Under the pieces are notes generated by a model that worked only from the letters and a program-made list of their open reading frames with translations, did not search any database and was not told where the DNA came from. Made by a program: the position numbers and the translations under genes. This document shows positions 3,047 through 27,889 of a stretch of 64,000 bases of DNA, piece by piece (within the stretch, counting starts at the first letter, position 1; each line of letters starts with the position of its first letter). The stretch comes from a bacterium (GTDB lineage: Bacteria > Margulisbacteria > Marinamargulisbacteria > JABGVJ01): assembly GCA_018646105.1 (NCBI GenBank), contig JABGVJ010000013.1:1517-65516 (forward strand), read 5' to 3'.

Positions 3047-5023
3047 ATGAATCACGAATATAATGCTACCCAAATAAAAGTTTTAGAAGGTCTTGAAGCT
3101 GTTCGTAAAAGACCTAGTATGTACATAGGCTCTACGGGCACACCTGGTTTAAACCATCTTGTTTACGAAGTAGTAGATAATAGTATTGATGAAGCCATGG
3201 CGGGCTTTTGTGATGTGGTAACAGTCACCATCGAACCTGATAATATCGTTACGGTAATTGATAACGGCCGTGGAATTCCAATTGATATACATAAAGATAA
3301 AGGACTACCCGCTGTTGAGGTGGTAATGACGACTTTACATGCTGGTGGAAAATTTGAAGGAAAAGGCTATAAAGTATCAGGCGGTTTGCACGGAGTAGGA
3401 GTTTCCGTAGTTAATGCCTTAGCGGAATGGTTAGTAGTAGAAGTTAAAAGAGATGGTAAAAAATATACGCAAAAATATTTTAGAGGGACTCCTAAAGAAA
3501 AATCTGGAAAACTAGAAGATTATAATGGTGATGATAGTGGAACGTTAATTCGCTTTAAGCCTGATCCGCAAATTTTTGAGTCTTGAGAATTCACTTCCGA
3601 AATAATCGATCATAGATTAAAAGAATTGGCCTTTTTAAATAAAGGTATAAAAATTATTTTTAAAGATACACGTTATGAAACCCCTACTGAAAAAGAATAT
3701 GTTTTTGAAGGCGGTCTTAAAGCTTATGTGGAAAATATTAATGAAAAAAAAGAACCTTTGTTTGCGCCTCCTATTTATCTAAAAAAAACCAGAGAACCTT
3801 ACGAAATAGAAGTCGCTATTCAATACGTTTCTGATTATTACGATGAACAGGTAATTTCTTTTGCTAATAATATTAGAACCAAAGAAGGTGGAACGCATAT
3901 CGCCGGCTTTAGAACTGCCTTAACTAGAGTAATCAACTCATTTGCTAAAAAATATGATTTGATAAAAGATAAAACCAAAAATTTTTCTGGCAATGATTTA
4001 AAAGAAGGTCTGACTGCTGTTATTAGTGTAAAACTACCACATCCTCAGTTTGAAGGGCAAACCAAAACCAAACTAGGAAACTCTGAGCTTAAAGGCATAG
4101 TGGATTCCATGGTAGACGAGAGCCTGACAGACGCAATTGAAACTACCCCTAAAATAGCAAAATTAATTATTAATAAAGCAGTTATTGCGCAAAGGGTGCG
4201 TGAAGCTACCAGACGAGCCCAAGATTTAGCGAGAAGAAAAAGCAGTCTGGAAAGCACAACGCTGCCAGGTAAGCTTGCGGACTGCTCTGATAAAGACCCT
4301 GCAAATTGCGAAGTATTTATTGTTGAGGGTGATTCTGCCGGAGGTTCCGCCAAGCAAGGAAGAGACAGAAACTTTCAGGCTATTTTACCTTTACGCGGTA
4401 AAATTTTAAATGTAGAGAAAGCAAGATTGGATAAAATTTTAGCAAATGAAGAAATTAAAGCTATGATTACAGCGCTTGGGCCAGAAGCTATTTCCGGTCT
4501 TTCTTCAGAGGATGACAATGAAGAAAACGGGACGGAAACTGAAGATGAAGATATAAAAAGAACTCTGAGTAAATTAAGATATCATAAAATCATCATCATG
4601 ACAGATGCTGATGTGGACGGATCTCATATTAGAACGCTGCTGTTAACTTTCTTTTTCAGACATGCAAAAGAAGTTATCTTGGCCGGTGGATTATATATTG
4701 CGCAACCACCTTTGTATTCTATAGGCCGCGGAAATGCAAAACAATACGCTATTGATGATGCGGCACTAGAGAAACTGTTAAAAGAAAAAGATATAACAAA
4801 AGAAGGGGCTCACATTCAACGCTACAAAGGTCTGGGAGAAATGAACCCTGATCAGCTTTGGGACACGACCATGGACCCAGAAAAAAGAAGTATGTTGCAA
4901 GTGACTATTGAAGACGCTGAAGAAGCGGACGATATTTTTACCACTTTAATGGGGAATAAAGTAGAGCCAAGGCGTGAATTTATTGAAAAATACGCCAAAA
5001 ACGTACGTTGGATAGATGTTTAA
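3047..5023 (+). CDS. gyrB: DNA gyrase subunit B, single reading frame interrupted by one in-frame TGA codon at 3584-3586 (possible pseudogene, sequencing error or recoding)
   Basis: ORFs 3047-3586 and 3626-5023 are in the same frame; concatenated translation aligns colinearly with GyrB (…[25 protein letters not shown]… vs B. subtilis …[27 protein letters not shown]…) with no indel; GHKL ATPase, TOPRIM (EGDSAGGS) and C-terminal domains all present. Confidence 0.85.
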
Positions 5024-22493: not shown

Positions 22494-23186
22494 ATGAGTA
22501 ACCCAAAAGAAAAAATTGAAAAGATACAACTTAATAAACCCGCTGATTCTCCCATAGATACTGTGCGATATATAAAACAATTAAAAAGAATGGATGCTGT
22601 CCAGATTTCTAGAGTATCACAGCGCGAAAAAATAGCGATGGTAAAACAGATGGCCAATGTTTTGGTATTTCAAATACAATCAGGTTCGCTTTCGGAAGAA
22701 ACCGCCAGGTTGAAAATCGCCTATTTGATGCAAATCATAAATTCTTTGGGAATTGCAGGCTGTTTGATCATAAAAGAAATTTTAGATTTGATAGACAAGG
22801 CTTTTATCCTAAAGTTTAAAAACCAGTCTTTATCTTTGGTTTTGTTATTAAAGGCTTTAGCCAAAAAAATGGCTAGAAAAACAGCTGATGTTAAGGCTTT
22901 GATAAATATAATTTTAAGTGATTCTTTAATATCAGATCCTGCCTTGGAAAATTTTGTAAATACTGTTTTTGAGGAAATGGCCAGTTTGTCTAGCAATAAT
23001 AATGCTTTTTTCAAAACACAAGAAGCGTTGAGTGCTTATAAAATCAAAAAAAGTCTCAAAAAAGTAGCTCAAAACGACCAAGACCAATTAATGCCGGGTA
23101 TACAAATAAACACGACGCACATACTACCAACTGGTTTGGCTTCACTTTGCTCAATGGTCTCTACTATCAATGTGCTTCTTGAATAA
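22494..23186 (+). CDS. hypothetical alpha-helical protein
   Basis: 230 aa ORF with plausible RBS (AAAGGA) upstream; no recognisable domain. Confidence 0.4.
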   Translation: MSNPKEKIEKIQLNKPADSPIDTVRYIKQLKRMDAVQISRVSQREKIAMVKQMANVLVFQIQSGSLSEETARLKIAYLMQIINSLGIAGCLIIKEILDLIDKAFILKFKNQSLSLVLLLKALAKKMARKTADVKALINIILSDSLISDPALENFVNTVFEEMASLSSNNNAFFKTQEALSAYKIKKSLKKVAQNDQDQLMPGIQINTTHILPTGLASLCSMVSTINVLLE

Positions 23187-24231: not shown

Positions 24232-24409
24232 ATATATCTCCTTGACTAGAGTTTGTCGCGAAACACGCTGTTTCATTTACAAAGTAAAAAAATATCATAA
24301 CAAAGATCAAAACAAAAGTTAAATATTTGTTTCTTGGCATTAATATGCTAATATAATTTTACAATTAACGGCTTATAAATTAATTACTGTTTATAAAGGA
24401 GGATTTTTA

Positions 24410-24502
24410 GTGGGTAGTGTATTAAAAAAACGCAAGAAAAAAATGAGTAAACATAAATATAAAAAATACGGCAAAAAAATGAAGGCTAATAAAAAGAAAT
24501 AA
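24410..24502 (+). CDS. small ultra-basic protein resembling ribosomal protein bS22 (30 aa)
   Basis: GTG start 7 nt after AAAGGAGGA; translation (M)GSVLKKRKKKMSKHKYKKYGKKMKANKKK closely resembles actinobacterial bS22 ([21 protein letters not shown]…). Confidence 0.55.
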   Translation: MGSVLKKRKKKMSKHKYKKYGKKMKANKKK

Positions 24503-24508
24503 AAAAGC

Positions 24509-24880
24509 ATGACTGCTAAAATTTTAATCGTAGATGATGATCTTTCTATTTTAGAACTAGTACGAATCCTCTTAGTTAAAGAAGGTTTTGAGGTAAAAAC
24601 GGCTACTAATGGGGAGACTGGATTAAAAGAAATCACAGAATGGCGACCAGATGTTCTTGTTTTAGATATTATGATGCCTAAAATGTCCGGATATATGGTA
24701 GCCGCTATCATGGAAAAAGATGAAAATCTAAAAAAAATTCCTATTATTCAATTAACCGCAACTTCGCAATTAGTGGGAGGGATATCTTTAAAAAGCCCAA
24801 GTCCCTATCGTATTCAAAAACCTTTTCAGCCTGAAGAATTATTAGAGCTGATTAATGAGATACTTTCTAAACAAAACTAG
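24509..24880 (+). CDS. single-domain response regulator (CheY-like receiver)
   Basis: ILIVDDD…VLVLDIMMP…KP receiver motifs with phospho-acceptor Asp; no output domain. Confidence 0.8.
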   Translation: MTAKILIVDDDLSILELVRILLVKEGFEVKTATNGETGLKEITEWRPDVLVLDIMMPKMSGYMVAAIMEKDENLKKIPIIQLTATSQLVGGISLKSPSPYRIQKPFQPEELLELINEILSKQN

Positions 24881-25429: not shown

Positions 25430-26635
25430 TTGTCAAGAAAGAAGAGGTGTGTGATGGGTCGCAAAAAAAACAGTAAAGATAAAGTTAAAAGAAAAATAAA
25501 AACTGAAATAAATTTTGAAAAAAAATTGTATAAAATTGGGGATATGACTCGTTTATTGGGAATTACTTCGCGAACAGTTCGATATTATGAACAAATGGGA
25601 TTATTACCGCATGTTAAAAGAACAGATGGCAATGTGCGGCTTTTTAGTACAGAAGATGTGGATATAATTAAAAGAATAAAAAAATTACAAGAAGAGTATT
25701 ATTACCCTTTAGAAGTAATTAAAGATATGATCTTTGGCAAAAAACCAGAGGCTCCTTTAGCAAATAAAATAGCAATCGTCACAGATAGTTCAGCGGGCTT
25801 TGATAAAGAAACCGCTAAAAAATTAAAGATCAAAATTATACACTTGAAAATCAAGATGCCCCCCTCGGTTAAACTATCCGTGGCTGAAAAAGTAAACCTT
25901 ACCTCATTATGGCCAAAAAAAGATCAAGATATTAAATTTATCCCACAGGTAGTAGCTCCTTCAATAGACGAATTCGTAGAATTTTATCTGGACTTACATA
26001 AAAAAGGGTTTCATGAAATTCATTCTATTCATTTGTCTTCTGCTTTATCAGACACCTATAAAAATGCGCTTGTAGCCGCAAATCACGTAGAAAGCAAAAT
26101 AAAAGTAACGGTTACGGACACTAAAACACTAGGTGGAGGGGTTTATTTATTAGCTAAAACATTAGCAGAAGCTATACAAAAAGGATCCTCACCGAAAGAA
26201 ATAGAGGTTTTATTATCTAAAAATTGTCCTCTTTTATACAACATGGTTATAACTAATTCATTGAAATATATCATTACTATTAAAAACTTTACTGATGATA
26301 TTGATAAAAACAGACGAAATATTTTTAATGGTTTAGTAGCTTTTAAGCCGCTTATGCTTTTTAACCCAAAAGGGGATTTAGAGATAGTAGATTGCTATAA
26401 AGATGTACAAGAAGGGGTGGATTTTTTGTCTGCCTTATTAAATAAGGAATTGATGAATAGAGGTAATTATTTAAAACAAGCCATTATTTATTATGATTAT
26501 TTATATACAGAAGCGGTTGAATTAGCGAATAAGTTAAGTAAAGAATATAAAAATGCGGAAATAATTTTAGAAAAAAGTAATGCAGTCATATCTTCTTATA
26601 TCGGGCCGGAATCTTTGGGTGTAGCGATATTATAA
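25430..26635 (+). CDS. MerR-family HTH fused to DegV-family (fatty-acid-binding) domain
   Basis: N-terminal YKIGDMTRLLGITSRTVRYYEQMGLL (MerR HTH); C-terminal IAIVTDSSAGF…HLSSALSDTYKNA…DTKTLGGG (DegV/FakB fold). Likely true start is ATG 25454, which has a better RBS. Confidence 0.7.
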   Translation: MSRKKRCVMGRKKNSKDKVKRKIKTEINFEKKLYKIGDMTRLLGITSRTVRYYEQMGLLPHVKRTDGNVRLFSTEDVDIIKRIKKLQEEYYYPLEVIKDMIFGKKPEAPLANKIAIVTDSSAGFDKETAKKLKIKIIHLKIKMPPSVKLSVAEKVNLTSLWPKKDQDIKFIPQVVAPSIDEFVEFYLDLHKKGFHEIHSIHLSSALSDTYKNALVAANHVESKIKVTVTDTKTLGGGVYLLAKTLAEAIQKGSSPKEIEVLLSKNCPLLYNMVITNSLKYIITIKNFTDDIDKNRRNIFNGLVAFKPLMLFNPKGDLEIVDCYKDVQEGVDFLSALLNKELMNRGNYLKQAIIYYDYLYTEAVELANKLSKEYKNAEIILEKSNAVISSYIGPESLGVAIL

Positions 26636-27268: not shown

Positions 27269-27385
27269 TTTTAATTTTGCTGTTTTAGAACAGCGGGGGC
27301 TCATATTGTCTTAGAATCATTGACACTACAAGAAAAAAAACCTTATACTTATAAGGCTAATTAATTTATATTTGGGAGCGTATTT

Positions 27386-27889
27386 ATAAAAAAAATTATT
27401 TTAAATGAAAGAATCCGGGCTAAAGAAATCCGATTAATAGATGACCAGGGCACCCAAGTAGGTGTTGTTTCATTAGAAGAAGGGTTGAAATTAGCAAAGG
27501 ATAAAGACCTGGATCTGCTAATGGTAAGTGATGCTACCATGCCGCCTGTATGTAAAATTATTGATTATGGGCAATTTAAATACGAACAACATAAAAGAGA
27601 AAAATTAGCGAAAAAAAGCGTTAAAAGTCAAGTTATTAAAGAATTGAAGCTGAGCTCGAAAATTTCTCCAAATGATTACAATGTGCGGTTAACGTTGGGG
27701 AAGAAATTTTTAGGAAAAGGATACAAACTAAAAATTTCTTTATTATTTAAAGGTAGAGAAATCGAACATATTGAGTTGGGTAAAAAAGTTATAAATAATT
27801 TTTTAAAAGATATTCAAGAATATGGAAAACCGGCTAATGACTTAAGCAAATCAGGCAGAATGTTATCCGTAGTAATATCACCTAAATAA
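27386..27889 (+). CDS. infC: translation initiation factor IF-3 with non-AUG (AUA/AUU) start
   Basis: ORF-track ATG (27485) lies inside the conserved IF3 N-domain; reading frame is open upstream to 27365 and encodes IKKIILNERIRAKEIRLIDDQGTQVGVVSLEEGLKLAKDKDLDL; GGGAG SD 7 nt before ATA 27386 (ATT codons at 27395/27398). Confidence 0.8.
   Translation: MKKIILNERIRAKEIRLIDDQGTQVGVVSLEEGLKLAKDKDLDLLMVSDATMPPVCKIIDYGQFKYEQHKREKLAKKSVKSQVIKELKLSSKISPNDYNVRLTLGKKFLGKGYKLKISLLFKGREIEHIELGKKVINNFLKDIQEYGKPANDLSKSGRMLSVVISPK

Follow-up and report, generated by a model that had tools for sequence, protein, structure and literature searches.

Within the 64-kb window, by which we mean the whole stretch of DNA that was analysed (~33% GC, with no rRNA gene), a very short plus-strand ORF lies immediately upstream of a gene for a stand-alone receiver-domain response regulator (RR; Table 1). 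The ORF reads GTG GGT AGT ... AAA TAA and its product is (M)GSVLKKRKKKMSKHKYKKYGKKMKANKKK*. Its GTG is the earliest ATG, GTG or TTG codon past the in-frame upstream stop, in a stop-to-stop segment that runs from position 24344, and the GTG-started frame of 30 codons described in the initial annotation is borne out by both sequence and translation. The spacing of 7 nt given there for the Shine-Dalgarno (SD) region holds for the GGAGG core, whereas the longer string AAAGGAGGA ends at 24403 and is 6 nt from the GTG, a trivial discrepancy. The predicted peptide (3,640 Da, or ~3.64 kDa) contains 15 Lys and 1 Arg, and its length and 53% Lys+Arg content place it within the range of the bS22 family of ribosomal proteins (free-standing, ~29-33 aa, >50% Lys+Arg). 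A single-sequence AlphaFold2 run predicted one helix spanning residues 4-29 (pLDDT 93.8) with no bend resolved, a type of result that has little discriminating power for short Lys-rich peptides.

A consensus promoter scan found no plus-strand promoter 5' of the micro-ORF, and a weak -10-like hexamer lies in the intergenic region that separates it from mnmA (Table 1). On its 3' side, the RR gene starts 6 nt past the micro-ORF stop, and no terminator-like site was found between the two genes in the window. An antisense ORF is present opposite both genes, as previously reported, and was reasonably called spurious, since Pfam gives no match for it and a genuine Response_reg gene occupies the other strand.

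Table 1. Features at the micro-ORF locus, in its surroundings and in related records
Feature	Record	Position	Strand	Details
Predicted bS22/COX24_C-family micro-gene	window	24410..24502	+	GTG start, 30 codons + TAA, 93 nt
Shine-Dalgarno GGAGG	window	24398..24402	+	7 nt 5' of GTG; putative role, from position and conservation
Candidate -10 hexamer TATAAT	window	24352..24357	+	between the divergent mnmA and bS22 genes; weak, without a good, properly spaced -35
Stand-alone receiver-domain response regulator	window	24509..24880	+	123 aa; PF00072, 77.3 bits
Antisense ORF	window	24391-24711	-	106 aa
ORF between recG and mnmA	window	22494-23186	+	230 aa
MerR-family HTH fused to DegV fatty-acid-binding domain	window	25430-26635	+	393-401 aa
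infC (IF3)	window	27368-27889	+	record starts at ATA 27368
Micro-ORF	L064	1924-2013		36% GC; GTG start at 1924; RR called from 2013
Micro-ORF	L065	2424-2513		51% GC; GTG start at 2424; RR called from 2519
Micro-ORF	L066	2259-2348		51% GC; GTG start at 2259
Micro-ORF	L067	4906-4995		50% GC; GTG start at 4906; RR called from 5001
bS22 peptide gene	L025	2369-2464		'Methanobacteriota archaeon isolate ARS96'; 32% GC
bS22 peptide gene	L026	4001-4096		Nitrospiraceae UBA6902; NF047430 64.3 bits
bS22 peptide gene	L027	4001-4096		Chloroflexi SZUA-185; NF047430 65.3 bits

No Pfam match was obtained for the 230-aa ORF that separates recG from mnmA; it is a called gene in the public record and shares 20 nt with the 3' end of mnmA, which runs convergently. 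Downstream of two convergent receiver genes, a MerR-family helix-turn-helix is fused to a DegV fatty-acid-binding domain, and the same gene order (RR, minus-strand RR, MerR-DegV) recurs on the contig of P0004, a 60%-identical RR homologue. The gene for IF3, infC, which is followed by rpmI and rplT, has no in-frame ATG, GTG or TTG start; in addition to the ATA at which the record begins, a second ATA at 27386 is preceded by GGGAG. The infC start is well known to be non-AUG and autoregulated, and an ATA start is consistent with this.

Pfam analysis of the micro-ORF product identified the COX24_C domain (PF08213, formerly DUF1713), which matched across model positions 1-30 of 33 with 34.1 bits (E = 2.5e-8; gathering score 23 bits). 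Peptides from relatives within the lineage also pass this model, with 24.1-29.9 bits. When PDB chains were searched by phmmer with the single peptide, mycobacterial bS22 (5o5j, 5o61 and others) was matched with E = 0.003 and C. acnes bS22 (8crx) with E = 0.009, while mitochondrial mS38 matched more weakly. A profile of 10 sequences that combines the window peptide with lineage relatives and other-phylum homologues, and whose scores therefore describe the group, reached E~3e-8 for actinobacterial bS22 chains and 2.6e-4 to 0.08 for mitochondrial mS38. These matches support the bS22-like identity proposed in the initial annotation, and the mycobacterial bS22 sequence quoted there agrees with the PDB chains. 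In an alignment of 11 sequences that includes the structure-verified bS22 proteins Msm, Bbu and Fjo (sequences from Supplementary Note 1, PMC10618245), M1, K6, K16 and K19 are invariant, and K10, K11 and H15 are nearly so. Lys16 has been reported to touch the h44 backbone in M. smegmatis bS22 (10.1101/2023.03.31.535098).

A profile search had been suggested as a check on this assignment, and it succeeded at the level of the Pfam family but not with the NCBIfam equivalog model for bS22 (NF047430, ribo_bS22), where the peptide scored 22.1 bits (E = 1.2e-4) against a cut-off of 34. Relatives from the Margulisbacteria lineage scored similarly (21.4-23.4 bits). In a panel of homologues run against the same model, Msm reached 61.3 bits, followed at lower scores by an Acidimicrobiia peptide (38.7), Deltaproteobacterium NaphS2 (33.7) and Ca. 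Actinomarina (28.3), while peptides from Nitrospiraceae (64.3) and Chloroflexi (65.3) scored higher still. The shortfall can be attributed to a divergent C-terminal half: the N-terminal half conforms to the family, whereas the C-terminal half, KKYGKKMKANKKK, fits neither of the known patterns (RKLLRRTRVQRRK; R.RANRHKKKK). This divergence is not merely a product of AT bias, since relatives with ~50% GC retain it. By profile similarity, the micro-ORF product is thus placed as a divergent member of the Pfam-level bS22/mS38 (COX24_C) family, and functional equivalence to bS22 is probable.

The neighbouring RR gene provided an anchor for comparison with related contigs that encode RR homologues with 48-55% identity. 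Four such loci (L064, L065, L066 and L067), which represent three distinct lineages with 36-51% GC, each carry a 29-codon ORF, MGSLIKKRRKKMRKHK[YF]KKYGK[RK]MKA[NR]K[KG], directly 5' of the RR orthologue. All four ORFs are free of frameshifts and internal stops and are preceded by GGAGG or GGTGG at the same distance from the GTG, whereas the DNA 5' of the SD cannot be aligned between the window and its relatives. The window and L064 share 76% nucleotide identity across the ORF. Codon comparisons gave 15 identical, 9 synonymous and 5 replacement codons for the window and L064, 14, 11 and 4 for L064 and L065, and 17, 5 and 7 for the window and L065; synonymous changes thus exceed replacements in two of these three distinct pairs, in counts that span 29 codons and are too few for a formal dN/dS. 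The replacements are mostly conservative (K/R, V/L/I or S/R). Conservation in close relatives had been proposed as a check on the ORF, and the intact frame in four loci from three lineages answers it: the pattern of synonymous and conservative changes indicates a peptide-coding gene under constraint in this lineage.

With respect to the identity of the lineage, the RR orthologue in GCA_964364855.1 is labelled Ca. Margulisiibacteriota, and the best homologue of the peptide itself is RAP32531.1 (79% identity) from a Ca. Marinamargulisbacteria bacterium. Among named relatives, those nearest to the window RecG (45-52% identity) come with very few exceptions from Ca. Marinamargulisbacteria or Margulisiibacteriota, and together these matches assign the window to a MAG of the Margulisbacteria lineage, from an uncultured marine bacterium. 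At the RecG-anchored loci of three further Marinamargulisbacteria relatives, no bS22-like ORF was found (best 5.4 bits); synteny at these loci is kept solely on the far side of recG, so they say nothing about absence from the genomes. Margulisbacteria-like RecG proteins were also encountered in records labelled 'Thermoproteota archaeon' (P0083) and 'Actinobacteria bacterium' (P0123), and the bS22 peptide encoded by the 'Methanobacteriota archaeon' record L025 agrees at every residue with that of Ca. Actinomarina (L022, L023), whose GC content of 32% L025 also shares. All three give the impression of contigs that were mis-binned or mislabelled, and not of genuine presence in those taxa.

In the window, L064, L065 and L067, a CheY-like receiver gene always lies directly 3' of the bS22-like gene, despite differing upstream genes. 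Upstream is mnmA in the window and recF/dciA-type genes elsewhere, while the adjacency of micro-ORF and RR is kept in all four related loci. The gap between the two genes is 4-5 nt in L065 and L067 (5 nt according to the start calls in the records), and in L064 those calls turn it into a 1-nt overlap. This constant adjacency suggests a lineage-specific operon or translational coupling, and the two genes are probably co-transcribed or translationally coupled. The partnership appears to be particular to the lineage, as no RR homologue was found nearby at any of 62 bS22 loci from other phyla. The start codon follows a similar division. Every Margulisbacteria-lineage copy starts with GTG, whereas ATG is used in 57 of the 59 other-phylum copies found by pattern (the exceptions being L015 with TTG and L059 with GTG), as well as in the Nitrospiraceae and Chloroflexi copies L026 and L027. 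A weak start that is fixed behind a strong SD may set the level of expression.

Because an AT-rich genome easily yields Lys-rich frames, we tested directly whether the micro-ORF could be a chance ORF whose likeness to bS22 is merely compositional, arising from AAA and AAG codons. The GC content of the window and the 15 Lys and 1 Arg among 30 residues are what such an origin would predict, and a phmmer search of 1.84 billion representative proteins returned RAP32531.1 as the sole match at E<=0.001, although this can be explained by how little information a query of 30 residues carries rather than by a lack of relatives. An independent HMM was built from 30 unique homologous peptides from other phyla only, leaving out the window lineage, and was run on the 1,631 stop-to-stop segments (>=20 aa) of the window and on 100 simulated 64-kb windows generated by a first-order Markov model. 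The micro-ORF scored 23.9 bits (E = 3e-6 over the 1,631 window segments), compared with 7.3 bits for the runner-up in the window and 12.0 bits for the highest score among the 100 simulated windows, which is about half as much. The micro-ORFs of L064-L067, scored as stop-to-stop segments, gave 25-32 bits with the same HMM. A compositional origin also sits poorly with the agreement of non-compositional residues (M1, G2, S3, M12, S13, H15 and Y17) with the family, with the retention of the ORF through synonymous changes in relatives with ~50% GC, and with an SD at the correct distance in every copy. Together, conservation in relatives and the comparison of the independent HMM with simulations refute this explanation, to which we give practically no weight: the micro-ORF is a genuine protein-coding gene.

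Accepting that the gene is real, its position could still mean that it serves mainly as a leader or coupling ORF that brings ribosomes to the RR start, its peptide being incidental or only secondarily ribosomal. The short or negative spacing between stop and start in the window, L064, L065 and L067, the absence of a terminator-like site between the genes and the preservation of their adjacency while the RRs have diverged to just 48-55% identity and the upstream genes differ are all features expected of such an element, and a fifth contig, that of P0004, has a 47-aa gene called directly 5' of its RR. A leader ORF would conserve its position, though, whereas here the amino-acid sequence is conserved as well, the peptide matches proteins that have been physically seen in ribosomes, and the family occurs at the 62 other-phylum loci where the RR is missing. 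Coupling is also compatible with a ribosomal role and would then be an added feature rather than a replacement for it, and we regard a primary leader function as unlikely. Less likely still, and in our view improbable, is that the peptide has its main function away from the ribosome, in the form of a free cationic helix, for example as an antimicrobial or nucleic-acid-binding peptide. It is short, amphipathic-basic and predicted to be helical, and there is a precedent in C. acnes bS22, which blocked both bacterial growth and cell-free translation in vitro, leading to a proposal of moonlighting (PMC10085706). The micro-ORF product has no signal peptide, though, and no export or immunity genes were seen nearby; furthermore, the family-wide conservation of Lys16 and the N-terminal motif is explained by ribosome binding, and what a polycation does in vitro is no evidence for its role in nature. 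By analogy with the C. acnes protein, some moonlighting as a free cationic peptide may nonetheless occur.

We therefore favour the reading that the gene encodes a divergent 30S ribosomal protein of the bS22/mS38 family, with an SD-led GUG start, in the Margulisbacteria lineage; we place its probability at roughly 0.8, with binding to the ribosome being the inferred part. The peptide would be translated from its GUG behind the strong GGAGG, probably on an mRNA shared with the RR gene. Based on homology with the proteins in the solved M. smegmatis, C. acnes, F. johnsoniae and B. burgdorferi ribosomes, the 30-residue helix would be buried in the 30S subunit, in a pocket that h2, h27, h44 and h45 of the 16S rRNA enclose beside the decoding centre, where the invariant Lys16 would rest on the h44 backbone. 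The C-terminal part would reach 23S rRNA in the H67-H70 region to form an extra inter-subunit bridge, and the bound peptide would stabilise h44 and the region of the pocket. Expression, ribosome binding, the rRNA contacts and any physiological effect are all predicted from these analogues. M. smegmatis bS22 is dispensable for growth, and its loss leads to higher aminoglycoside sensitivity (10.1101/2023.03.31.535098). A more speculative idea, which we put forward as a long shot, is that the Margulisbacteria protein gained its own C-terminal half (…KKYGK[KR]MKA…), a fixed GUG and a fixed, probably coupled CheY-like partner, and that the supply of an optional decoding-centre protein could be tied to two-component signalling in this way, or the dosage of the receiver to ribosome production. 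If true, the partnership of bS22 and receiver would be a form of regulated ribosome heterogeneity.

The gene was initially described as unannotated, which proved incorrect. An identical protein is present four times in NCBI nr (MBT3261328.1, MBT3580857.1, MBT4552423.1 and MBT7088038.1), each time under the name 'AURKAIP1/COX24 domain-containing protein [bacterium]', and RAP32531.1 is named alike; naming by domain rather than as bS22 follows from the sub-cut-off NF047430 score. One of the four contigs that encode the exact peptide belongs to GCA_018644845.1 (JABGPR010000037.1), where the gene is called and PF08213 is recorded for it. The suggestion that the ORF lies below the thresholds of gene callers therefore holds for L064, L065, L066 and L067, where the orthologous micro-ORFs are missing from the gene calls, but not for that assembly. 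Annotation of this 29-30-codon gene is inconsistent between public records: it is named in one assembly and uncalled in four related contigs, and the equivalog model misses the divergent subgroup.

The claim that a bS22-like protein is unexpected in a non-actinobacterial AT-rich diderm is overstated. bS22 is already documented in the ribosomes of Flavobacterium and Borrelia and apparently in those of Porphyromonas, and homologues occur in at least four further phyla. Among the matches listed from alignment-based scans of genome and metagenome contigs, 29-31-codon homologues with an SD were found in Desulfobacterota, Acidobacteriota, Nitrospirota and Chloroflexota, in hosts with 32-72% GC that include Delta proteobacterium NaphS2, Desulfobacteraceae, Acidobacteriota, Nitrospiraceae and Chloroflexi. 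The matches listed are mostly Acidimicrobiia and include no close relatives of the window organism, so this phyletic spread is a lower bound and is not quantitative. The Nitrospiraceae and Chloroflexi peptides (L026 and L027) outscore Msm on NF047430, which indicates that close bS22 equivalogs exist outside Actinobacteria. An 'Actinobacterium-specific' label for bS22 persists in part of the literature (PMC10085706), and none of the papers listed by a literature search links bS22 to Margulisbacteria, a group that has been described as a sister lineage of Cyanobacteria (PMC6349859). Margulisbacteria would thus join the organisms that carry the bS22/mS38 family and, along with the other-phylum homologues, support a broad bacterial distribution over an actinobacterial speciality. 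bS22 may be far more widespread among diderm phyla than the label implies, and may be ancestral to bacteria; a broad distribution is relevant both to where mitochondrial mS38 came from and to aminoglycoside susceptibility. The Margulisbacteria subgroup is mildly new in its divergent C-terminus, its invariable GTG start and its constant position next to a stand-alone receiver. The gene itself already has a name in public records, and other diderms provide clear precedents for it. Our understanding of how bS22 works is unchanged by this finding.

Among the proteins of known structure, the actinobacterial bS22 proteins (M. smegmatis MSMEG_0945, M. tuberculosis and C. acnes; 5o5j, 5o61 and 8crx) are the closest to the micro-ORF product and belong to the same family by profile; the C. 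acnes protein likewise goes by the name 'AURKAIP1/COX24 domain-containing protein'. They share with it the N-terminal motif MGSV[IL]KKR.K.MSK.K, including Lys16, and Msm bS22 is 47% identical to the window peptide (30 aa and 53% K+R in the window, 33 aa and 55% in Msm). The C-terminal halves differ (KKYGKKMKANKKK in the window and RKLLRRTRVQRRKLGK in the actinobacterial proteins), and the window peptide uses Lys rather than Arg almost throughout, starts with GTG instead of ATG, belongs to a Margulisbacteria-lineage host and scores below the NF047430 cut-off.

Further parallels are the bS22 proteins of Borrelia and Flavobacterium. B. burgdorferi bS22 (bb0822), identified by cryo-EM, is encoded by a 93-nt GUG-start ORF that was absent from the annotation of an AT-rich diderm, and the authors of that study foresaw more such unannotated cases (PMC10618245). 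F. johnsoniae bS22 (Fjoh_1533) was likewise seen in the ribosome by cryo-EM (PMC7797042), and a study of the Porphyromonas gingivalis ribosome also appears to describe bS22 (PMC12123416). As in the window, a tiny gene in an AT-rich diderm host encodes the Borrelia and Flavobacterium proteins and is often missed by annotation; in Borrelia, the length of 93 nt and the GUG start are also the same. These two proteins contain 57-61% K/R and align with the window peptide without gaps, with H15 and K16 in common, yet identity is just 37% (11/30). They start with MP[CS]G.KRK and end with NRHKKK, and both motifs are absent from the window peptide, which has an MGS..KKR start of the actinobacterial type. 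The bb0822 and Fjoh_1533 chains were not among the PDB matches at E<=10 for either the window peptide or its profile.

The C-terminal domain of mitochondrial mS38 (AURKAIP1, or yeast Cox24) belongs to the same Pfam family as the window peptide, and mS38 occupies the same small-subunit pocket as bS22 (PMC10618245; 10.1101/2023.03.31.535098). mS38 is a nuclear-encoded protein of 111-200 aa with long N-terminal extensions, whereas the window protein has nothing beyond the basic domain. Eukaryotic and archaeal eL41, a basic helix of ~25 aa, sits at an equivalent site and makes an equivalent Arg/Lys contact with h44 (PMC10618245; 10.1101/2023.03.31.535098). Searching PDB with the window peptide or its profile yielded no eL41 chain at E<=10, so the relation of eL41 to the window peptide is one of analogy or very remote homology only. 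Peptides of the Acidimicrobiia type (MGSLVKKRRKKMSKHKYRKRLKANRHKRKK; L002-L063, for example L016 and L038) have a mycobacterial-type N-terminus and the C-terminal ANRHKKK of the Flavobacterium and Borrelia proteins, and their identity is 60% with Msm and 53% with Fjo, compared with 30% between Msm and Fjo. Since these peptides join both sets of motifs, they suggest that the two published types are the ends of one continuous family.
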